Below, piece by piece: positions 5,768 to 56,240 of a stretch of DNA of 64,000 nt. The stretch spans positions 379,998,001 to 380,062,000 of the forward strand of contig OZ024740.1 of NCBI GenBank assembly GCA_964016885.1, given 5' to 3'. The DNA comes from Eledone cirrhosa. Lineage: Eukaryota. The notes under the pieces were generated by a model. The model worked only from the letters and a program-made list of their open reading frames with translations, did not search any database and was not told where the DNA came from. Numbering within the stretch: the first letter of the stretch is position 1; each line of letters opens with the position of its first letter. The position numbers were made by a program, and so were the translations under genes.

Positions 5768-6299
5768 GTCAGGTCGCTCTCGACTGCTACAAGTAACATG
5801 TAACTCAGTACAACCCACCTCATGGTCGGGTCGTCGGCAACTAAATCGGCAACCCCACCAAGCTTGCTTGGTGAGGAGGGCGATATTTGGACACCCTGCA
5901 GGATGAAATACAAGACCCGGCAAAGGGGGGAGGAACTCAGCAGAGTCAACGGCCATCCAAATAGTGCTTTTTTCTTTTTTCACCTGGGTGTGAAAAGCCC
6001 CCAGTTGTTGTCACAACACCTTTCTAGGAGAGGGAAACACTGAAAAAGAAAAATCTGCGGCTTCGGAAGCATCCGATGATGTTGACCAGATTTCCTTTTC
6101 GGGTAGTGTTTTCGATGCTCAGAGAGTGGGATTAGTCGAGTGCAAGGCCTTTCCTCACTTAAAAAACATTCAAAGCACAGGCATTGCTTGTTCAGGATAT
6201 GTTACAGGTTTGTGTGACTTGCCCTAGCCTAAAAGTGCACCAAACTCTATAATTCTCCAAGCAATTGCAGTACTCTTAGCAGAGTTTGCAGCCATCATG
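5768..6299 (+). mobile_element. Non-coding structured repeat in (TATG)n, LINE 5'-UTR-like (copy 1)
   Basis: Starts gtcaggtcgctc and ends gcagccatcat. Homologous to 10045, 13868, 42734 and 43439. TATG repeats lie on both sides. Confidence 0.85.
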
Positions 6300-6309
6300 T
6301 ATGTATTAC

Positions 6310-7060
<751 letters not shown>

Positions 7061-7379
7061 CATTGACATGCATTGCATCGTCATAGATTTATTGTCGAAC
7101 CGATAGTGGAAGTAGCATGGGACTATGAGACGTTTATCTGATGTCTCGATAAGAAAACGAGATATAATATAAAGCATTATCTCAAATAATCTCTATATAT
7201 TACATTATGTCAAACTGCAGTAAATAAAATTAGCTATTTCCCAATAAAACCTTTGGAGAATAGTAGCTAGCAGATAAGAACATCTCTTTGGCCATAATCC
7301 ATCCTTAAATACAAAATGAAACTATTATTAAATTTAGCCGCCTCTCCATTCGGAGGGAGGATTTTCCCCATAAAGCTTC

Positions 7380-8010
7380 GGCTGAAAGAAAGGTCTCTGA
7401 GGGTGGTGCAAGTTTACGTGTCAAACAGAGAGCCCAAATACAGATCCTTCTTTTAAGAAGTAACTGCAGCATTAGATTTAGTTAAGACTGAGTCATATAT
7501 CCTATTGGGAGACTTCAATGCACATGTTGGAACTGACTACCTTATATGGAAAGGAGTAAGTGGGAGGAATGGCGAATCCGATCTAAATATGAATGGAGCG
7601 GCCTTATTACACATATCTTATAGTAATAGGCTCTCTATTATGAACACCTTCTTTCAAGCATTCATAAACACACATCGTATAAGGGGAAGCGGAGACTGAG
7701 ATCAATAATTGATTGTGTTATTTTCTCGGATCTCTTCGATTCTGCGCTGACTGTTCGTGTTAACAGAATGGCTGAGCTGTCAACTGATCACTATCTAGTT
7801 ACCTGCAACCTGAGACTACCTAAAGCCAAGAGAGATCACAAAACTTGCCGGTCCAGGTCGTTCTACAGGATAAAGTGGAAAGCGTTGGCAAATAAGGAAG
7901 TAAGAAACAGGTTTGCAAATACGAATGCATCCAAATTCAGACAACTCCCTGATCAAATGAGGACGTTGAAATGGAGCGGAGACTGTTCAGCTCAGCCGTT
8001 TATGCTTCAG
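7380..8010 (+). pseudogene. RTE-clade LINE fragment, AP endonuclease region
   Basis: LLGDFNAHVG, GRNGESDLNMNG, IMNTFF and AELSTDHYLV motifs, with frameshifts. A (GAA)n tract follows at 8028-8091. Confidence 0.85.
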
Positions 8011-9013
8011 ATGTTAAGTGAAAAAACGAAGAAGAAGAAGAAGAAGAAGAAGAAGAAGAAGAAGAAGAAGAAGAAGAAGAAGAAGAAGAAGGTTTATGAT
8101 ATCGGAGACAATTGTTTTACTTTCATTTACAAGTGTAAAGAGCATTAACTATAACCGCAGTAAGATTTGCCAAGGGCAGTGACTCTAGAAACCGAGGGTG
8201 GGGATTAAAATCGAATGCATATTTCTTTCCACCTACTTGTCTATCAGTCACCAATTTGTTAGATACAGAATGCTCTTGAAGGTATTAGTTGAAAGAGCTT
8301 GTGTAACTTTTATACAATTTTAGGGAAGCAACAGATCAATAGTTGTCTGCCAAATCGGTGTATTCATTCTTTACATGATTGTTTGTGCTAAGGCATGCCA
8401 AGTTTGTATTTGCATCTGGCTTTCCATGACTATTATAAATATACAATTTAGTTACTTCCTGTAGAACGTCAACAACGTTTACCCGTCTTTAACTATTAGG
8501 TCAAACTCTGGTGTTTTACAGCTTCCCCAATTTTGTTGAAAGCTGTTTATGTAAGTTTTATTTTTGATATTGCTACATTCTTTCTTATTGATTGTATCTA
8601 GTCATTATACATTTTGATTGAAATGATATCCTTTTTTTTTCATTGTAGATCTAAGATTAATTTTCTTCACCCTCCGATATACAGCTTGCCGATTAGAAGA
8701 AAATTGCGGTTAATGCTGTAATTCAGTAGTCTTTTTTCTGATAACGTAGTTTTTCATTCAACGTCTTTAGGTCGTGTTTTTCAATGTTTGAAAATTTATA
8801 AATTGCAGTTATCAATTTTTTTTTCCAATTTTTAATTACTTGAAGGTTTCCCGTAAGAAAGAAGCTGGTTTCTTATAAAGAAACAAAACATTATCGTTTG
8901 AGTTTGGATAACAAATCAGTGACTGGCACACGTTGGAGAATGTATGTATGTATGTATGTATGTATGTATGTATGTATGTATGTATGTATGTATGTATGTA
9001 TGTATGTATGTAT

Positions 9014-9996
9014 GTTCTTCTGGTTTTATAATTTCACAAATTCTTTCCCAATAGAGAGAGAGTCAGTTTCTAACATAGACACAAGACTCTCATTGGAATT
9101 TACACATCAACTTGGTAGATTATGTATGCATACATGCAGGTATAGATATGGATGTTATTGTATGTGTGGATGTGGATGTTTTGAGTTCTATGTGTGCATG
9201 TGTATATGCTTTGTATCTGTACATGTGTATATGCAGTTATTAGCTGCACATTTTTTGGAATGTTTTACATATTTTTACTATACCATTAATGGATTGTACT
9301 TGTAATTTACTAACTAGTTGTGTTCTTTCTGTTCCTGTGAAGCCTAGCTTCTCAAGATTTGTATTGAGGCAGTTACTAACATACCCCAGTGCCCCAATAA
9401 TCACAGGCATAAATCTGAAGGTGTAATCAGGGTGGAGTATCTGCAGATTTCTCATCAGTTCTGCATAAATATTCTCCTTTTCGCTAATTTTTGATATTAT
9501 ATTGGCATCTTCTGGGCAGCTAATTTCCACTACTGTGCATGCTTTTTTCTCCCTGTCCCATATCATAATATCTGGTCTGTTATGCTTGCATTTTATTGGG
9601 GTTTTTACTGGAACATTCCACCAGTACTCTTTCATATTATGTACATGGATGTCTTCCGCATTGCTGTAGCTTTTAATGTGTTTATTAACGGAGCTATCTT
9701 TTTTACGGATTGCATTGTACAGTGTTTTGGCCACTACATCATGCCTCATAGGTAGATAGTACCGCGATGACATCTTTGGACAGCTGCTGATGACATGGGT
9801 GACATCTTCGATGTTAATTCTGCAGAGTCTGCACTTATTATCACATCTAGGTGTTTTGCCTGCATCCCTATCTCTTTTGTGAATCGAGTATTTCGTGTTA
9901 ATTTCCTTTTCTTGGATTCCAAAAGCGTATCCTTCAAAGTGGTAACCAATATAGCGGTTGTTGGTCCAAGATAGACTACTTTCCTTATCTATATTA
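9014..9996 (-). mobile_element. 5'-truncated R4/Dong-like non-LTR element (CCHC knuckle plus restriction-like endonuclease)
   Basis: The frame upstream of ORF 9240-9773 reads EGYAFGIQEKEINTK...CRLC...HVISSC. The ORF has RHD, NRPDI, VVEISCP, EKENIY and IIGALG. (CATA)n lies at both ends in element sense. Confidence 0.85.
9240..9996 (-). pseudogene. RLE-type retrotransposon ORF C-terminus (PD-(D/E)xK endonuclease)
   Basis: ORF 9240-9773 plus its open upstream extension. Confidence 0.85.
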
Positions 9997-10044
9997 CTAT
10001 GTATGTATGTATGTATGTATGTATGTATGTATGTATGTATTTAT

Positions 10045-10659
10045 GTCAGGTCACCAGTTGGTGCTACTGGTAACATATATCCCAGTACAACCTGTCTCAT
10101 GGTCGGGTCGATGGTGACAAACTGGCACCCCCCCCCCCCCAAGGTTCCTTGGTGAGGAGGGTGACTTTGGACATCCTGCAAGACTAAAAACAAAACCTGT
10201 TAAATGGCAAAGGAGCTCTTAAGAGTCAATGTCCATCCAAAATCACCGGGAGAGATGACCCCTTAGCCTTTGTCAAGGCAGAATTCTAGGAGAAAGAAAA
10301 CTCTGATATAACACCTACAACCCCGATGGTATCCAAGGATGTTGACATGTTCTTCTTTCTGGTAAATATCATCTTGGTTAAGAGAGTGGGGCTGGCTTTG
10401 TGCAGTGCCTTTGCTCACTATAAAAGCTTCACGGCACAGGCATTGCTTTATATCTGGAGATCTCTCTGCACTTGTCGTCACATGGTACCATGGGCCCAGC
10501 ACTATATGTCAATAATTGTCACAAGTGTAGTGTTTGTACCAGAGTTTTCAAGTCGCTGGCTGGACTAAAATGTCACACTCGTTCAGCGCATCGGTAGGGG
10601 TTCTCCTACATGGATGTAAAGTAGTGGCCATACTCGAAAACGAGTTGGCAGCCACCAGG
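10045..10659 (+). mobile_element. Structured (TATG)n-associated repeat (copy 2)
   Basis: gtcaggtcacc...ggtgaggagggtga...gagtcaatgtccatcc...ggccatactcgaaaacgagttggcagccacc, followed by TATG. Confidence 0.85.
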
Positions 10660-13867: not shown

Positions 13868-14401
13868 TGTCGGGTCACTCTTGAGTGCTACTGGTAACAT
13901 GTAACCCAGTACAACCTGTCGCATAGTCGAGTCGTCGGCGACTAAACTGGCAACCCCACCAAGTTTAATTCGTGAGGAGGGTGATTTTGGACATCCTGCA
14001 GGACAAAAAACAAAACCTGACAAAGGGCGGAAGAACTCATGAGTCAACGACCATCCCAAAGTATGTAAGTATGTTTATACACATGTACCGCGCGGTTAAA
14101 CCACTGGGAGGGAAGGACCCATAGCCCTCGTCTGGGCATTCTTGTAGGAGAAGGCAACTCAGGAAACTGGGATAACTCCGATATAAAACCTGCGGCTCAG
14201 TAGTTACCGATGATGTTGATCTTTTCTTCTTTTCGGGTTATAGCTACTGTCGCTCAGAGAGTGGGATTGGCTCAGTGCACAATATTTCCTCACTTTGAAA
14301 AATATCTTCACGCACAGGCATTGCACGATAGACTTAATTAATAATTATTAATAATGGTATATCATGCAATGGCCATACTCGATAACGAGGGGGCAGCCAT
14401 C

Positions 14402-14402
<1 letters not shown>
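13868..14402 (+). mobile_element. Structured (TATG)n-associated repeat (copy 3)
   Basis: Same 5' domain as the other copies. The 3' half is nearly identical to 43547-43842. Ends atggccatactcgataacgagggggcagccatcat. Confidence 0.85.
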
Positions 14403-21406: not shown

Positions 21407-21768
21407 TATAATACTCTCATGTCTGTAGAAGATATGAAGGAATTGTTTAAAAAGCTATAGATCTATAGTCAATTTACATTTATCTTTGTCACTACCTAAT
21501 ATAGAATGGAATAAGAAATACAATATTTTGTGTGACACTACAAATATGCTTATCTCGATCCAAATCAATCTACACCTTTTCCCTTTTTCAAATCTTACAA
21601 AATGTAATATAATTAATGTACTTCTAATTACTTTGAATCGATGGAATACACTTGTGTCGATAAAAACCTTTCCACATATCAAGAGAGTAAATGTTATAGG
21701 TGAAATGAAATTCAATTGATAATTATATAGAAGAAATCCGGGTCAATTCATTGAATTATAGAGAGGGA

Positions 21769-23697
21769 ATCATCATGGCTTGGCTTCGCGAACGAAGATT
21801 AGGAAGGTTGTCCACGTCGTCTGCAGGCACGCTCATGATTGACAAGTCCGATGCGGGAAAGGCAGGTCCGTGAGCAGTGTCCATAGATGAAGGTAACGTC
21901 CGGTGTGGTGTCAGAGGCGGCTCGGACCTTCCTTCTGCGTCTCTTGTCTTTTTGCGCGTCTCTTCTGTCTTCCTCAAACTCGCTGACTGCGTTGAAGATC
22001 GTGTGGCGCCAGGAATCACTGTCCGCAGCCAGGTCTGACCAGCATTGGTGGTCAACATGACATGCGGTGAGAGACTTTTTGTAGCGTTTCTTCGAGGCTC
22101 CTCTCTCTCGGTGGCCGGTGGAGAGTTCGCCAAACAGGGCAATCTTAGGAAGGCGATGGTTCTCCATTCTGGAGACATGCCCTGCCCATTGGAGGTGGTA
22201 CTTCAGTAGCATGGCTTCAATGCTGGGGGTCTCGGCCTGCTCCAGAACTTCAACGTTTTTGACGAAGTCACTCCAGCGAATGTTGAGGATGGTGCGAAGA
22301 CATCGCTGGTGGAAGCGCTCGAGGAGACGGATGTGACTGCGATAGGTGACCCAGGTCTCCGAGCCGTAGAGGAGAGTGGTGAGAACGACAACCCTGTAGA
22401 CGCTGATCCTTGTCTTGTTCTTCAGGTTTTTGTTGTGCCAAACACGTTTGTACAATCAGCCAAAGGAGCTATTTGCCTTAGAGAGTCTGTTGTCAATTTC
22501 TTCGTCGATCCTTGCATCGGATGAGATGATGCAGCCCAGGTATGTGAACTGCTGTGTTGATTTCAGTTAGGTATCGCAGATAGTGATGTAGGGTGGGCGG
22601 TATTCTTCTTGGGGGGCAGGCTGGTGAAGAACCACCGTCTTCTTGAGGCTAACCTCCAGGCCAAAGAGCCGTGAGGCGTCCGCAAAGCAGGACGTGATGC
22701 GCTGCAGAGCTCGCTCTGTGTGGGCGACGAGGGCAGCGTCGTCCGCGAAGAGAAGGTCTCGGATCAGCCTCTCCTGGGTCTTGGTATGGGCTTGGAGGAG
22801 CCGTAGATTGAAGAGGCTTCCATCCATACGGTACCTGACATACACCCCATCTCCATCATCCAGATCCTCAGCTGCATGCTTGAGCATCATACTGAAGAAG
22901 ATGCTGAAGAGAGTCGGTGCCAGGACACAACCCTGCTTCACGCTGTTGGAGATGGGGAAGGGCTCCGACATGTCACCGTTGAGTCTGATCTGGCCGCGCT
23001 AGTTCTCGTGCAGCTGGATCACCTTCTGTAGAAACTTGGTGGGACAGCCAAGTCGTTCCAGGATGAGCTATAGTCCTGTCCTGCTCACTGTGTCAAATGC
23101 TTTTGTGAGGTCGACAAAAGCAGCACAGAGTCCCTTGTTTTGTTCTCGGCACTTCTCCTGGAGTTGGCGGAGGACGAACACCATGTCCGTCGTGCCTCTG
23201 TTGGCTCTGAAGCTACACTGGCTCTCGGGGAGGTTTTCTTCAGTGATGGTTGGTACGAGCTTGTGGAGCAGAATCCTGGCAAGTACTTTGCCAGCGATGG
23301 AGAGTAGGGTGATTCCCCGGTAGTTGGAGCAGTCAGACTTTTTACCCTTGTTCTTGTACAGGGTTATGATGACGGCGTCGCGATGATCCTGTGGCAGCTT
23401 ACCCTGCTCCCAACAGCAGACAAGAAAATCGTGTAGCTTGTCGTGGAGCGTCGGACCTCCATTCTTCCAGATTTCTGGTGCGATGCCCCCAACTCCTGCT
23501 ACTTTGCGACTCTTGAGTTGTTCTATGGCTTCAGTCGTCTCTTCGAAGGTAGGTGGTTCGTCGAGCTCCTCTTTGAGTGGAAGTTGAGGAACGCGATGGA
23601 TGGAAGCGTCCTGTACGGTGCGGTCAGCACTGAAGTGGCTTTAGAAGTGCTCGGACCAGCGAGCGAGGATGGAAGTGTTATCGGTGAGGAGGTCCTG
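21769..23697 (-). mobile_element. 5'-truncated RTE-clade LINE (RTE-1/BovB-like)
   Basis: RT motifs NYRGITLLS, FVDLTKAFD, VKQGCVLAP and LLFADD. C-terminal LLYGSETW and WAGHVSRM. 3' tail gaagccaagccatgatgat. Stops and frameshifts are present. Confidence 0.95.
21799..22971 (-). pseudogene. RTE reverse transcriptase C-terminal half (ORFs 22567-22971 and 21799-22455)
   Basis: Track ORFs carry QGCVLAP, FADD and the RTE C-terminal motifs. Confidence 0.9.
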
Positions 23698-25606: not shown

Positions 25607-28600
25607 ATATTTCTATTTATTTGCCACCAGGGCATTAAAGATTGGGACAAATACAAAGGGGGGAGTTTACATACATTTAAAAAGACGTGTAAAAAACATA
25701 TAACAAATTAAATTTAACAATCGATGTCCTCAATAGGGAGGGGCGTTGACATGGGTCGCACCCACCCCCGAAAAAATGTGCAACCCTCCTCTTCAGGAGC
25801 ACAAAGAGCGGGTGCTTCCTTCCTCTTCTCATTCTTCTCCTCTCTCACCTACAGGCTGATATAGAGAGAAGGCCGATTCACTCGGGCCATTCTCGCTACT
25901 TTCACCCATCTTTCATAAAACTTGCTGGGGTAGAGCACCTCTCTCTCCATTCTGATCCTTCTTCTAAAGTAGTACTTGAAAAAAAAGACCAGTTGTTGGC
26001 CGGAGAGAAAGGTGTCTGACCTCAGCCCTTTCAACCTTGTCCACCATACTTCTTTCGCCATGGCTATCACGCAGAGGAAAACTGCCTCTCCTTCGTTTTT
26101 GAAAGGGGGGGGGGGGGGGGTTGATCGTGACATTGTTTTCGGTGGTCAACCGGATTGGTCCCACCCGCGACAGTAGTCGTTCCACATAGCCCCACAGGTC
26201 AGCAACGCCCGGGCAGTGTACGAATGCGTGTGCGACGGTTTCCTCGTCACGCACGGATATCGGACAGATCTTCGAGGGGTCCCTACCCGGGCGCCCGTGT
26301 CTGTAGAGCTTGTCTCGAACGGGTAGAGCTCCTCGGTAACATTGCCAAGCCAGGGACTTTTGGAAATTGTCCATCGGTCCCGGGCCAAACGTCCTACCGA
26401 ACAGACTGGCCAGCTCGTCTTCCTCCATGCCCAGAGCCTCTCCGAGAGCGTCGTCGCACTTACTGCGCACCAACCCTCTATAGAATGTTGAGGTTGAGTC
26501 TCCACTGATTGCCGGATCCACTTGCCAGAGGGCTGTGATGCCTGGGCACATTCAATGTGCCAGTCACCCACTTTTCTCGGTCTTTGCTTGACCCAGGATT
26601 GCAGCTCGGTGAGTGAGACGAGTCTCGGAAAGGCTCGCCTCACAAACAGGGCCCACACCGGCTGACCGGTGAGGAATACCTGGAGGTGCCGTAGCCTTAA
26701 TGCGTGTCTACGCATCGTCAGCCACGGCATCCCCAGCCCTCCGTTCGAAGGGTGTTGACAGCAGATGGATCTTCTCAGCAAAGGAGCTCGCTTCTTCCAA
26801 AGAAATCTGAAGAGCGCCCGCTCCATTTTGGCGAGTGTTTTCTCTGGGCAAGGCACGACGGTCAAGCGGTAGTAGATGACGGACGCTATATAAGCGTTCG
26901 CCACCTCCGCTCGACCTTTCAGGGATAGTTTTCACTCGTCCCACTTCTTGTCGAGTGCAAACACCTTGCCCGTTACCTCGTCCCAGTTTTTCTCCACCTG
27001 ACAGTCCGGTCCGAACCAGACCCCGAGCAGCTTCACCGGTCCCTCCGTCCAGCGTCCGACGATGCCGTCGGAGGGCATCGTTTTGCCCCTCCACATCCCG
27101 AGTTGCAAACCGACGGACTTGTCCCGGTTCATCTTGGCTCCTGTGAACCTTTCATATTCCTCCAGTAAGGTGCCGATCTGCCCGATTTCCGAGGCGCACG
27201 ACACCATTACTGTCACGTCATCGGCGTAGGCCGACACCGCTTTCCGCATTCCCGGTTCCAAGGGGATGCTCTGCAACAGCTCCAGCTTCCGCAGTAGTGG
27301 CTCGAGAGCCAGCACATACGGGAGGAAGGAGAGAGGGCATCCCTGTCGAATGGGTCGCGTGATTTGGAACGGCTCCGAGAAGTAGCCGTTCACCTTGACC
27401 CTCGAGCAGGTGTTGCTGCTGTGCATTGCAGCAATCCAGCCCCTGAAAACGGGTCGGAAGCCTGCCGCCGCGAGCACCGCATCCAGGTACCGATGGTCAA
27501 CCCTATCGAACGCCTTTGATTGATCCAAGTTGATCAGGGCCCCACCAAAGCCGGGTTCGTTCCCTACCCTCTCTACGATGTATCGCATGAGGTGGAGGTT
27601 GTTGTGTATGGACCTGGACGGGATTGCGCATGTCTGCGCTTCTCCCACCAGGTTCCCGACGACAAGCGCCAACCTCTTCGCTAACACCTTGGCCAAAATC
27701 TTTAACTCTGTGTTTAGCATAGTTATGGGCCTGAAGTTATCTATGTCATCCCCCTTGTTCTCGTCCTTCCTCACCAGCGTGACTACGCCCTTGGTCACAG
27801 AACTGGGAATTCTCCCGTTCTATTGCCAGTTGCAGTAGACCGCCTCGAGGAGACCGGAGAACAAGCCCGGCATCGCTACATAAAGTTCGTATGGTAGACC
27901 ATCGAGACCCGGAGATTTGCGTTTGCCGCATTGGCTCAGCGCTTCCCCTATTTCAGCGGCTGAAATCGGCCTCTCGCAGGACTTCGCCTCCCCGTCCGAG
28001 AGCCGCACCAGACCGTCGAGGTATGGACCGAAATCCATGTCCCCACCCGGCCCGCCACCCCTCCCGAACAGTCGTGCAAACGCCGTTGAAAGGGCAAGCT
28101 TATCCGCTCAGGTTCAAGGATCACGCGTCCATCCTGGTCCTTCAAAGACCGAATTGTGGACTTGTTTCCACTTTTTGCCTCTGTCACTCGGGCCCAGCTA
28201 ACAGCTTTGGCTCCCTTGTTACCCAGAGCACGTATTTTACTCCTGACAACGCAGCCCTCGTGCTTTGCATCAAAGAACTGGTCTAGGGCCGTTCTTGACG
28301 CCAGCAGGCCGGCCACGTTGCCACTCCTAATCGCCTCTTCTACTCTATTTGTTAATTCCCTTTCAGTTCTATTCCTATCTGATGCTAATTCCCGACTAAA
28401 ACCTATCGATTCTATTCTAATTTCTCTCTTGAGAGAGCCCCACCACCTGCTGTTGACAATTGCCCCCTTCAAACGCTGCTTAACTAGTGTGCTAATCCGC
28501 TTACTGTAAGCTTTGTTTGTCGGTAAAGACAAGCTTAGCTTCCAGTAACCGGGTCCCTGTCTATGAGTTCTATGAAGGTTGACCACTCCGGTCACCAACT

Positions 28601-30182
28601 TGTGATCGGAATAGTCAACCATGAACATTCGTGGACAGCTTAATATGTCCCTATCCTTATTTCTAACTAGGAACCTATCTAGGTACGACCTAGATGTTCC
28701 GCTGCGATTACTCTACGTCCACCGTGGCACAGTCGGAAAATCTAGTCGATATCTATCGGCCAGATCAAATCGGCCGATTAATCGTTTGAGGCTGTTACAC
28801 CCCCCTATATCGGGACATGCCCCTATATAGTCCCAACGTGCATCCAGGATACCATTCCAGTCCCCCACTAAAAGCAAGGAGCATGACGTTCCCAGGAAAT
28901 TCTCCAGGCGTCGGAAGTAGTCCGGTCGCGGTGTCCCAGATGGGGCATACGCTGCCACCAGTCTGAAAGCTCCACCTTCACCACTGCCGACGTCTAAAAC
29001 CACCAGTCGACCCTCCGGGTCCAGGTGTACCTTCCGTGTGGCAAGACCCAGGTATTTTCGCAGCAGAACAACAACCACACCCCACCCCTCGGCTGACAGA
29101 GAGATGCGTAGATCTCAAAGTCGTCGAAGATGGGGGCCAGTTGGCGCTCGCTGCTGATCCTGGACTCGCAAATAACCATTACATCCACTCTGTGCGACCT
29201 GAGGTCATTTAAGAGTTTGCCCTGTTTCCAGGACATCCCCAAGCCACGTGCATTCACACACCCAACTCTTATATTGGCCATGTTGGTGCTGAAGAGTTAA
29301 AAAGGAAGAGGAAAGGAAATTACTTACCCCTTCGTCTCCTGGGGACCAGGCTGCACAATTTCCATGGGGGTGTTGGAAGGGTTGTTTGGTGGGGTGGTGG
29401 TTTGTGGTGGGGTGAGGACATCAGTGTGTGGTGGGATTAGGGTGTTTGGTGGGGTGTGGGGGTGGGGAAACATCTCAATAGGACGCTGTTATGTGGTTTG
29501 GTGCAGTTGGTCCCCACATGCATTGGATGGTTCTTTTTCAAAGTTACATAGGTTTCCGTTGGGACCCTAATCATCATTAGGTGCGGTTTGTTCGCTGCAT
29601 AGGCGAAAGTGATCCCTTCGGTTTCCACCGAAGGGTTATTTTCTATCACTTTCATCAACGTTTTATTGTTCTTGTTAATGTATGTATAGAGTTTTTGTTG
29701 TGTTGTGTTTGTTTTTGTTTGTTGTTCTTGTGCGTGTTTGCGTTTTGTAGTACGTGTTATGTTTTGGGGAGAGTGGGTTTTTTTTATTTGTGATGTTTGT
29801 TCTGTTTGTGCTGGTGGTTGTGTGTTTGTGGCATTTTTGTTAATGTGGTGCCTTTTTTTTCCTTTTCACCTGTTGAAAGGGTTCTCCCTCGTCCTCACTG
29901 GGTGACGTTGATACGGAGTTCTCTTCCGTGTTGTTGGGGAGGGTTATATTTTGGGGTTTTGTTGTGGTTGCTTTTGTATTTGTTTTAGGTAGGGAGGGGT
30001 TGGGTGGAACAGTGTTTTGTGTTGTTATTTTTCCGTGTTGTTGTGGTTGTTGTTGTTGTTGTTGTTGTTGTTGTGGTGGTGGTGGTGGTTGTGTTGTTGT
30101 GTTCGGGGTTGGCAGAAGAGCCTTTTTTTTTTTACTCGTTAATTGAGGACAGGCAGCCCTCAGGTGACCCCTGCTTAAGCAG
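25607..30182 (-). mobile_element. L1-clade (Tx1-like) non-LTR retrotransposon, 5'-truncated in ORF1
   Basis: ORF1 remnant with a knuckle (CLSRGHLRAACP) and a P/Q/T-rich region. ORF2 from ATG 29281 carries EN (NARGL, GDWN, SDH), RT (RPITMLN, DQSKAFDRV, RQGCPLS, AYADD) and a C-terminal CxxxxxxxETVAHAFVHC. aataaa lies at the 3' end. Confidence 0.95.
25849..29281 (-). pseudogene. Tx1/L1 ORF2 (APE-RT-Zn knuckle), frameshifted
   Basis: Colinear track ORFs 28994-29281, 28713-29078, 27948-28628, 27820-28038, 26932-27798, 26146-26904, 25964-26551 and 25849-26133. Confidence 0.92.
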
Positions 30183-42733: not shown

Positions 42734-43216
42734 GTCAGGTCGCTCTCAAATGCTACAAGTAACATGTAACTCAGTACAACCACCCTCATGGTAGGGTCGT
42801 CAGCGAGTAAACCAGCAACCCCACCAAGCTTGCTTGGTGAGGAGGGTGATATTTAGACACCCTGCGGGATGCACAAGACCTGGCGAAGGAGGGAGGAACC
42901 CAGCAGAGTCAATGGCCATCCAAATAGTATTTTTTCTTCATTTTTTTTTTTCACCTGGGAAACTCTGAAAAATAAACCTGCGGCTTCGGAGGCATCTGTT
43001 GATGTTGACCAGCTCTCCTTTTCGAGTAGTGTTTTCGATGCTCAGAGAGTATGACTGGTCGAGTGAAAGGCCTTTCCCCACTTAAAAAACCTTCAAAGGA
43101 CAGGCATTGCTTGTTCAGAATATGTTACAGGTTCGTGTGGCTGGCCATAGTCTAAAATTGCACCGAGCTCTATAATCTGACAAGCGATTGCTCTTAGCAT
43201 GGTTTGCAGCCATCAT
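42734..43216 (+). mobile_element. Structured (TATG)n-associated repeat (copy 4, close to copy 1)
   Basis: gtcaggtcgctctc...gcagccatcat, flanked by TATG. Confidence 0.85.
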
Positions 43217-43438: not shown

Positions 43439-43842
43439 AAGCGTCAATGGCCATCCAAAAATGTGTAAATATGTATATGTATATGCATATATACATATGT
43501 ATATATATGCGCGGATACATAGAAATAATCGGGCTGGATACCCGATCGCGCGGTTAAACCACTGGGAGTGAAAGACCCCTAGCCTTTGTCAGGGCATTCT
43601 TGTAGGAGAAGGCAACTCAGGAAACTGGGATAACTCCGACATAAAACCTGCGGCTCAGTAGTTACCGATGATGTTGATCTTTTCTTCATTTCGGGTTATA
43701 GCTACTGTCGCTCAGAGAGTGGGATTGGCTCAGTGCACAGTCTTTCCTCACTTTAAAAAAATATCTTCACGCACAGGCATTGCACGATAGCATTAATTGA
43801 TGATAATTATTAATAATGTTATATTGTGCAATGGCCATACTC
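43439..43842 (+). mobile_element. Structured repeat, 5'-truncated (copy 5, close to copy 3)
   Basis: cgcgcggttaaaccactgggag...ggcattgcacgatag...atggccatactc. Confidence 0.85.
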
Positions 43843-43870
43843 AATATGTATATGTATGTACATATAATAT

Positions 43871-53610: not shown

Positions 53611-53974
53611 ATATAATAGTATATTAACTATCTAATGATACATATTATATATAAATATAGTAAAAGAAAAAAATATATATTTATTTATATATAGAATATA
53701 TTGACAAGTAAATGTTTTGAAACAGCGAGCGAGTTTGAAATTAGAAATAGAAGCTTTCGTCATATTTTTTTGTTAAAGAAATTTTAGCCTGATTAAAACC
53801 CTCTAAGAAATGGAAAAAAAAAGATGAGTGTTAAAGAACATGGAAGTCTAACCCACATCTTTGGTTATCCAGACCACTGCGCTACCATTACGCCAACTCA
53901 TCACGATGTCCCAAAGCAGTATATATTATATTATTCATTATATATATAAATTAACGATTTGATTTATTGTATAT

Positions 53975-54385: not shown

Positions 54386-54725
54386 TAACAACACTCACGC
54401 ACAGACACTTACTCACACATACACACGCACACATATATACCTACATACAATGAAATAGTTCTAGTTATGTAGAAGTTATTTCAATGAAATAAATATACTT
54501 ATTCACTACTAACGAATTAAGTACTTTATTTAACTGTAGTTATTTCCCGATTCTATTCGGGATAACGTCATTAATTATATATATATAATTATAATGTAGG
54601 AGGTGAGTTTTATTGTAGTACAATAAAGCAATCGGATACAGGTACAACTCGGAACAATGTAGGACTGGAGTATGTAGGACTGGAGTATAAATCATATAAG
54701 ATCAAAAGATGGTTAAAAGAGTTCC

Positions 54726-56240
54726 ATGTCTTTTATTATGCGCATTTCAATAACCATCTTAGAATTCAACAGTGAATACTGGACTAGAGCTGATACCTCC
54801 AACAACTTTGATATTACAATGGGTGCATCCGATTCATCGCAATTGACTGATTTAATTGGTATCTTTATTTTGAATTCTTTAAATCGGAAAATTCCTCAAC
54901 TTCGCGGTGGAATTTATCGTGACGATGGACTTTTTACTATCTTAAATTGCAATATAGTTAACCTTAATATTATTAAGAACAATATACGTGATCTCTTTAA
55001 CCAACATAACTTAAAAATTGAATTTGATAACAACGTCAAACTAGCTAACTTCTTAATCTTGACACTGGCCTATATTATCCTTACCATAAAAACAATGAGA
55101 ATCTAAATTATGTTAATTTTAAATCTAACCACCCTACTAACATTAAAAATGCTATAGTTAGTAATATTGGAAAAAGAATATCAAACCTATCATCTAATAA
55201 AAAATATCTTTGATGCTAACGCCAATTACTATAATAATGCGCTTTCTAAAGCCGGTTATCCTCATAAAATCAAATACAGTAAAGAAACCAATCCTAGAAG
55301 ATCTTACAGTAAAATAATTAATTATGATCATTCCAATAACTTAAATAAAAGACCTAGATACAAAAATATAATCTGGTATAATGCTCCTTTCTCTATTTCT
55401 ATTAATAATAATATTCCTAAATTATTCTTTAGTGCCTTAAATAAATGCTTCCCTCCCTCATATATCTATAGTAAAATATTTAACAAACATACAATAACAT
55501 TTTCCTATTCCACCTCCTCCAACATCTCCAACATTATCTCTAAACACAACAATAAAATATTAAATACTAAATCACTTCCTTCCAACACTGAATGTCATAA
55601 TAATAGCAGTAGTACTCCCGACGTCATTGTTAACTCTAGGCTAGTTTCTGCAAACTCAAATACGACGTCAAACGTAACTTCGTCAAATGTTCTTAATACC
55701 AATCTAAATCAGGAAACTATTATTCCTATCGTAAATAACTTCTCCAATCCAATTCCTCCTATAGATAACACTAGGTCACTTGTTAATAACTCTGTTAATT
55801 TCTCTAATCGCAATTGTAATTGCCCTGTTAAAAATAAATGTCCTCTCACCAACCATTGTCTTGAAAAAGACTTAGTCTATGAATGTAAAGTTATAACTGA
55901 TACCAATTCCTTTACCTATTTCGGCTCCACTTCCACCTCCTTCAAAGCCCGTTTTTATAATCACAAATCTTTTAAATACCAACTTAAAAGAACCAACACA
56001 GCACTCTCAGAACTCATATGGTCCTTGAAAGACAAAAATATTAACTATAACATCTCTTGGAGGAAAATTTGTTCTGCCTCTCCCTACTTGAATGCCTCCC
56101 TATCCAGAACGTGTAATCTTTGTTTATGTGAGAAATTCACCATTATATCTAATTTAGATTCTATAATAAATAGACGCACTGACTTATTTTCTCTCTGCTT
56201 GCATAAATTCCACAGAACATTCCATAAAGTATACAGCTAA
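54726..56240 (+). pseudogene. PLE RT (C-terminal half) plus GIY-YIG endonuclease, frameshifted
   Basis: Track ORFs 54726-55106 and 55167-56240. Confidence 0.92.

Follow-up and report, generated by a model that had tools for sequence, protein, structure and literature searches.

The repeat family in the window

The window analyzed here is a stretch of 64,000 nucleotides from a 3.0-Gb, microsatellite-rich animal genome and it contains four full copies of a (TATG)n repeat family, which start at 5768, 10045, 13869 and 42734 (the third was placed at 13868 in the first-pass annotation). Each of the four is preceded by a (TATG)n-type tract, and the hairpin letters that had been quoted for the family are all present where they were placed. 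A profile search of the window finds the four copies and one diverged fragment (6303-6452), and over the four copies no Rfam family is found at gathering level.

Copy 1 (5768-6297, plus strand, like all copies described here) is a full element of subfamily C1 and an internal-deletion derivative of a C-type autonomous RTE, in which the 5' UTR is fused to the last ~50 nt of the C-type RTE. In its head (5768-5827) helices P3 and P1 are damaged by changes common to copy 4, and the remainder of the 5' domain (5828-5961) contains a series of local hairpins, with P4 enclosing the CGACTAAA loop, followed by P5 (CACCAAG/CTTGGTG), P6, P7 and P8. The diverged fragment, an old 5'-truncated copy of the 5' domain, lies immediately 3' of it. 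Copy 2 (10045-10657) is a full non-autonomous element of subfamily B, made of part of an RTE 5' UTR and an RTE 3' end; it sits between (TATG)n tracts and runs into the one at 9998-10046 (plus strand), which is the usual flank and tail of subfamilies A-D. Copy 3 (13869-14402) is a full element of subfamily A whose middle module and 3' end are common to a young intact RTE family, here called Y; its xrRNA-like head (13869-13928) has a G-U pair in P1 and one private change, in the 3' strand of PK2. Copy 4 (42734-43215), again of subfamily C1, has a damaged head and an internal deletion of ~50 nt, and a headless 5'-truncated subfamily-A element that consists of the middle module is found at 43444-43846.

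Not one of the four window copies is intact. Copies 1 and 4 have in common five differences from the C1 consensus, four of them within the first 51 nt, while their flanks are unrelated. Genome-wide, the exact head-breaking variant occurs only in these two copies, which points to a local duplication or conversion and not to an active lineage. As copies 1 and 4 belong to one subfamily and have these head-breaking changes in common, the copies in the window cannot be counted as four independent samples.

Other repeats are found in the same window. Positions 9240-10040 (minus strand) hold a LINE 3' fragment with a CCHC finger and restriction-like endonuclease motifs, which by these motifs we take to be Dong/R4-like, between the (TATG)n tracts at 8940-9015 and 9998-10046; Pfam gave no match on this fragment. 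It shares the microsatellite on the opposite strand, and the same arrangement is seen at five other loci (L002, L005, L006, L227 and L243). A second type of RTE has left a decayed endonuclease region in the window (7270-8020, plus). The window also contains a 5'-truncated RTE that ends in (ATG)n and is unrelated to the family's tail (21756-23640, minus) and a Tx1/L1-like LINE (25964-29114, minus), and at 53832-53902 (minus) a tRNA-like sequence reaches the Rfam gathering level. The frames at 256-1260 and 54717-56240 (both plus) are, judging by motifs, presumably Penelope-like RT/GIY-YIG-type frames.

Family size and lineages

A 23-nt core of the family has 16,087 exact matches genome-wide, against 0 for the reversed control, and the density of the family in arbitrarily placed sequence (three matches per 400 kb) is in line with this count. 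From 158 near-full copies, after two outliers were dropped, five lineages were resolved: A (copy 3), B (copy 2), C1 (copies 1 and 4), C2 and D, whose copies diverge by 1.6-11% from their own subfamily consensus. An older lineage, E, was found by pattern search and has a different tail and non-microsatellite flanks. Family-E heads have also expanded as tandem minisatellites with units of 30, 53 and about 102-107 nt (L387, L395-L398, L403-L410, L423, L431 and L436), and in the long ones the junction falls at a short repeat shared between P5 and the 5' end.

Origin from RTE retrotransposons

The repeat is the extreme 5' end of an RTE 5' UTR, together with short non-coding derivatives of it. When 30 RTE loci were picked solely by the endonuclease N-terminus of a homologous protein, and thus not for the 5' domain, the 190-nt domain was found ~600 nt upstream of the endonuclease start in 21, and in 15 of those 21 it began at the first one or two model positions, which gives the domain a sharp 5' boundary. 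At their 3' ends, A and B match the 3' end of an RTE LINE, and full-length C-type LINEs terminate in the 3' sequence that copies 1 and 4 also have. The marks of the RTE clade are thus found in the family: a 5' part homologous to the 5' UTR of an autonomous RTE, whose single ORF combines an APE-type endonuclease with RT, a LINE-type 3' end and a microsatellite tail; the ORF of the related family Y encodes Exo_endo_phos, RVT_1 and C2H2 fingers. Since the 5' domain lies in RTE loci and the 3' ends are common to the LINE, the short elements are therefore bipartite RTE derivatives in the sense of Kojima, 2018 (PMC5786205). Bov-A, RTESINE1/2 and WALLSI3 likewise combine a 5' UTR with an RTE LINE 3' end, and they too have a microsatellite tail and no small-RNA head; in contrast to our elements, no 5' xrRNA-like fold is described for them in that paper, which points to self-cleaving ribozymes as the 5' module (PMC5786205).

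The first-pass annotation had described the repeat as having no tRNA head, TIR or ORF. This holds for the short elements, while the ORF part fails for the family, as the 5' domain also leads full-length RTE LINEs. It had further named a known LINE 5' UTR structure as an outcome that would remove the novelty; the domain is a LINE 5' UTR, although we found no published structure for it.

The youngest of the RTE families is Y, in which open frames of ~1,200 codons are numerous (L443-L462, L256-L265). It shares the middle module and the 3' end of A without the head, and hence the head is an exchangeable 5' module. In Y the head is replaced by captured-looking sequence within a 5' UTR of ~1.8 kb, and some copies are 5'-inverted (L262, L273). 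The 5' cut points of the Y copies are staggered; four of 20 begin at a common other start ~1.84 kb upstream, so a sharp 5' end does not require the head. A head does lie 1.1-1.6 kb upstream in two of the 20, and we read these as neighbouring insertions.

The RTE and Dong-like elements of this genome resemble those described in PMC9115989, which together with the character of the genome suggests an octopus, and the element sequence is absent from the searched supplements of PMC9115989, PMC13282606 and PMC10294476. The domain is covered in sequencing-run contigs of four organisms and in one invertebrate RNA library, which speaks for presence only and not for a level of expression or for the position of RNA ends; a metagenome scan yielded four RTE loci, none with the 5' domain. 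An RTE beside L030, considered as a source of the 5' UTR, turned out to be a truncated passenger of another repeat and gave none. At L091-L121 a 5'-truncated RTE occurs in more than 200 candidate copies behind a fixed upstream unit, which starts with an inverted-repeat element of ~450 nt.

RNA structure is kept between lineages

The proposal of the first-pass annotation that RNA structure is kept between subfamilies is borne out. Of the 16 non-majority pair types that the six lineage consensuses show across the domain, 15 are standard pairs and six are two-sided, against 0.31-0.39 for private changes in copies, and variable columns are fewer among paired (13/100) than unpaired positions (24/92; Fisher p 0.028); since the helices were picked by eye on the same sequences, these pairing statistics lean toward the favoured reading. 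All six two-sided changes are located in P2 and P5. The first hairpin in which compensatory changes had been seen is P2, and its covariation is real between subfamilies, with the caveat that a G-C/G-U/A-U series in P2 could also result from CpG decay. Two further proposals did not survive. The ccaagg-tt-ccttgg change is private to copy 2; in its subfamily, B, the stem CCAAG/CTTGG is invariant and the 4-nt loop is variable. The long-range helix that was thought to close the 190 nt is fully paired in subfamily A alone, the consensuses showing a U.U mismatch in B, A.C in C1 and C2 and both in D, because its distal ACCYG strand covaries with a local CRGG; the partner of CAGGT that is kept in every lineage is an ACCTG 45 nt downstream.

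The core of the head (P1, P3, PK1 and PK2) is nearly invariant, with no two-sided change in 20 pairs of eight copies. Covariation is found in P2 and the downstream hairpins and is thus no proof of the core fold. An inner P1 pair of C-G type in four D-type copies was considered as covariation, and it was not counted after an unselected count, in which the first 100 of 117 listed copies gave C-G once, C.A four times and U-G four times. Pattern searches found no further family with a C-G outer P3 pair, and for a changed fourth P3 pair they found five decayed copies and no further family. Heads of family E have an unrelated 5-bp stem in place of P2, and in PK2 the A.G mismatch is converted to C-G, which gives a sixth pair.

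The head is predicted to fold as an xrRNA

The first 60 nt very probably have the architecture of a flavivirus subclass-1a exoribonuclease-resistant RNA (xrRNA), as predicted from their layout and letters. This subclass is defined by a three-way junction with a single C between P2 and P3, a G-C pair as PK1, a base triple of a U with an A-U pair, and a PK2 of 2-7 bp (PMC8374639, PMC8571300 and PMC7527734, in their descriptions of the subclass). At the level of sequence, all these defining letters and pairings are present in the element head, which reads in order: G-U, a 5-bp P1, the P2 hairpin, one C, P3, a C followed by A or U, the P1 partner, a spacer of 2-3 nt and a strand that can pair with L3. 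The P1-P2-P3 junction can pair in six of six lineage consensuses, the single C is present in all lineages, and PK1 (the 5' G with the C after P3) is an invariant G-C in all six. The letters from which the base triple is predicted are also kept in all lineages; its A-U we take to be the second P3 pair, as in crystal structures. PK2 has 4 bp and a flanking pair in A-D and 6 bp in E, so that all six lineages keep the pairing and the putative knot is retained in each. Of the 158 copies, 134 have C-A as the linker after P3 and 16 have C-U, and viral linkers are likewise dimorphic.

In copy 2, the predicted fold of the subfamily-B head (10045-10103, plus strand) can be followed position by position. 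G10045 belongs to PK1 and U10046 to the base triple; P1 is 10047-10051/10090-10094, P2 is 10052-10055/10060-10063 with C10064 as the junction, and P3 is 10065-10070/10082-10087 with L3 at 10071-10081. C10088, the partner in PK1, and A10089 precede the second P1 strand, and after the spacer comes the 3' strand of PK2 (10098-10103). A single private change in L3 makes PK2 weaker in this copy.

For a near-consensus B head, as for copy 2, energy minimisation returns precisely P1-P2-P3. In a 200-nt context ViennaRNA gives P1 a probability of 0.91 in B and of 0.00-0.12 in A, C1, C2 and D, and in subfamily A the long-range helix is preferred (0.98); most viral xrRNAs fail the same test, which therefore has no discriminating power. 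In six of seven heads, the control among them, the folding z-score does not reach significance. In the energy model the upstream UAUG repeat is able to pair with the PK2 strand.

Comparison with viral xrRNAs

When a near-consensus B copy was compared with 4,227 Rfam families, the best match was Flavivirus_SLIV (RF01415), with 24.6 bits and E 0.067 over the first 72 nt, against a gathering score of 54.5. The match appeared only with the near-consensus copy: the raw window gave microsatellite noise only, and a C2 copy gave no RF01415 match at E up to 10. As a calibration, the two xrRNA sites of a Zika-like viral locus (L309) score 29.7 and 25.0 bits and thus also stay under 54.5, so the RF01415 threshold does not define the class. 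Two sites in the viral contigs match the published ZIKV and WNV xrRNA1 starts given in supplement rows of PMC8571300, and the first site of L309 is the one that matches ZIKV xrRNA1.

The nearest counterparts of the head are flaviviral subclass-1a xrRNAs, among them ZIKV xrRNA1, WNV xrRNA1 and MVEV xrRNA2 (RF01415; structural descriptions in PMC8374639, PMC8571300, PMC7527734 and PMC5760640). The element has in common with them the 5' G-U, a 5-bp P1 that starts with CAGG, a variable P2, the single junction C, an A-U as second P3 pair, the C-A/C-U linker, a short spacer, the L3 pseudoknot and a P4 hairpin after it. The lengths also agree with the reference of 13 flavivirus-size sites: 12-14 nt for P2 (8-15 in the viral sites), 23 nt for P3 with L3 (17-24), 2-3 for the spacer (2-4) and 21-22 nt for the span (19-24), the D row being biased by pattern-selected copies. 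When 23 core positions are compared with the majority letters of 16 viral sites, the element departs mainly at four, and these amount to two swaps of a C-G pair for U-A, in the inner P1 and the outer P3 pair; the viral contigs were chosen by motif letters, so the letter identity is partly circular. Unlike the viral xrRNAs, which stand in tandem in a 3' UTR, the element's head is single and forms the 5' end of a chromosomal retrotransposon; in all lineages but one of the six, PK2 contains an A.G mismatch, and the resistance of the head is a prediction.

Several controls bear on chance similarity. A descriptor passes 94 of the 158 genomic copies and two of the four window copies, while of 20,000 dinucleotide shuffles ten pass anywhere and none in the first 10 nt, and 800 kb contain three non-family sites. 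Given the motif letters, a PK2 of at least 4 bp with full pairing is found in 0 of 80 prokaryotic chance motifs and in 9 of 17 sites from contigs of flavivirus size; among the remaining viral sites it is found in 1 of 65. A covariance model built from eight element copies alone was searched against 80 viral loci; its top 16 were 13 flavivirus-size 3'-end sites and three sites in two small viral contigs, and five of the 16 had not been picked earlier by pattern. The viral scores on this model range from 14.5 to 25.6 bits, a range into which prokaryotic chance motifs with element-like letters also reach (19.8 bits).

The three sites in the small viral contigs (L295 601-655; L300 254-321 and 601-655, in contigs of 4.3 and 3.7 kb) are subclass-1a-like and have a U-A outer P3 pair as in the element, and L300 carries two of them. 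It is possible that the subclass extends beyond flaviviruses.

Proposed function and alternative explanations

In xrRNAs the 5' end is threaded through a ring, by which Xrn1 and unrelated 5'-3' nucleases are blocked, and Xrn1 halts 5-6 nt before P1 (results reported in PMC5760640). We put at roughly two in three (0.68) the probability that the head folds in this way, stalls 5'-3' exonucleases and thereby halts the trimming of read-through RNA and sets or shields the 5' end of the element RNA. An element without a start of its own would be transcribed inside a host or tandem read-through RNA, or in intron RNA, which splicing, 3' cleavage or decapping would open to 5'-3' decay. Xrn1 or Xrn2 would then trim it down to the knot and leave a defined, protected 5' end, and the RTE protein would bind the 3' end and copy the trimmed RNA into (TATG)n tracts. 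The knot would be a swappable module with the same job as the HDV-like or twister ribozymes of other LINEs. More speculatively, trimming might help the knot to close by removing the upstream UAUG that can pair with the PK2 strand.

The genomic 5' ends bear on this scheme. Counted from the PK1 G they are 0-3 nt upstream, which places them 2-5 nt before P1, as compared with the Xrn1 halt at 5-6 nt, and they are compatible with it only if a few nt are often lost or hidden at integration. Nothing is conserved beyond ~3 nt upstream of the head; C2 keeps a subfamily-specific letter two places upstream and about half of the E copies, in a slightly query-biased set, keep one extra G. Target duplications of family E abut the PK1 G in three of six analysable cases (30 loci tried), against 2 of 30 in the control.

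A different explanation, which we regard as unlikely, is that the head is an internal Pol II promoter whose transcription start is the 5' end, with the fold secondary or a second function. A sequence-invariant core suits a DNA motif equally well, family Y has exchanged the head for another 5' sequence, and Pr77 of L1Tc is an example of promoter and ribozyme in one, according to the summary consulted. The nearest precedent for a swappable 5' module, the LP-SINE / Nimb-17_LMi / I-3_DR / RTE-9_CPB 5' domain (Matetovici, 2016; PMC4758252), is like the head a ~70-nt module exchanged among LINEs and SINEs, in molluscs and others; its function is left open there, and it is read as a promoter. Yet the LP-SINE head in the supplement of that paper is a different sequence in the part compared, with no three-way junction evident (PMC4758252). 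Nor would a promoter explain why P2 as a whole gave way to a different perfect stem, why PK2 was repaired in family E, or why the geometry matches that of viral RNAs. Further, the copies retain letters upstream of the A of TCA, where subfamily A has a G, which argues against an initiator-type start, at least under what we take to be the initiator consensus.

We consider it distinctly improbable that an uncatalogued ribozyme forms the head and cleaves itself directly upstream of the first G. Such a ribozyme would fit the clustering of the 5' ends at this G or within 3 nt of it, but the xrRNA template accounts for every conserved letter. No U6 fusion was found at the head junction in a search with what we take to be the U6 motif, which is a weak test. 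No Rfam ribozyme family matched the B and C2 copies at E up to 10, and this includes the covariance models of twister, hammerhead, pistol and hatchet; hammerhead and twister core words are absent. The nested double pseudoknot of HDV-like ribozymes (G1, P1.1, catalytic C in J4/2) was found neither by Rfam nor by a loose descriptor, which gave nothing in A, C1 and D and mutually inconsistent fits in B, C2 and E. As no tRNA model matched over the elements either, the first-pass annotation was right that the repeat is neither a tRNA-SINE nor a standard HDV, hammerhead or twister ribozyme. A ribozyme at this place would have company, since RTE and five other LINE clades have 5' ribozymes (HDV-like in R2, RTE and Ingi among others, as cited in PMC5786205) and twister variants occur in Perere-3 (PMC8501958). 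Like them, the head would be a compact RNA with pseudoknots, placed precisely at the 5' end and able to release the element from read-through, but neither a catalytic core nor a ribozyme topology was found in it, and its predicted product would carry a 5'-phosphate from trimming where theirs carry a 5'-OH from cutting.

It is more doubtful still that the fold is real, perhaps derived from an RNA virus, and now serves as a handle for protein binding, packaging or translation and not as a nuclease block. The short elements retain the whole 5' UTR, including downstream hairpins with covariation of their own, and the 5' ends fall a little short of those expected from an Xrn1 halt. On the other hand, the head stands at the very 5' end with nothing conserved past ~3 nt upstream, which is where the halt site would be, and since family Y is active without the head, the RTE protein does not need it. 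That the resemblance is accidental and the head an ordinary hairpin-rich UTR is hardly credible: the Rfam score is sub-threshold after a scan of thousands of families and the core is invariant, but against this stand the shuffle and chance-motif controls, the reciprocal ranking of viral sites by the element model, the pair-swapped nature of the core differences and the family-E changes in P2 and PK2.

Novelty and implications

A 2021 review describes xrRNAs as characterised only in viruses and poses their cellular occurrence as a question, in the passages that deal with their distribution (PMC8374639). In the literature searched at the level of listings and abstracts, we found no xrRNA reported to occur naturally in a retrotransposon or in any other RNA of cellular origin. 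Repbase or Dfam may list the family, and the RTE family may well be catalogued; what appears new is the assignment of the fold.

It is on balance probable that this animal's chromosomes contain a working flavivirus-type xrRNA, present tens of thousands of times, as the 5'-end-forming module of a LINE family. Retrotransposons would then have a third route to their RNA start beside promoters and ribozymes. The pair-swapped identity with the xrRNAs of flaviviruses and of small RNA viruses would suggest an exchange of modules between RNA viruses and retrotransposons.

If the head does resist Xrn1, the question of whether cellular genomes hold xrRNAs would be answered, with a 60-nt candidate, and the result would bear on the origin of the flaviviral fold. 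LINEs and SINEs that lack a promoter would be seen to have a new means of obtaining a defined, stable 5' end, and resistance would account for the many 5'-complete copies. The thousands of copies in introns and UTRs could leave stable decay intermediates in the transcriptome of this animal, and the RNA decay of the host would become a maturation step for the RNA of the element.
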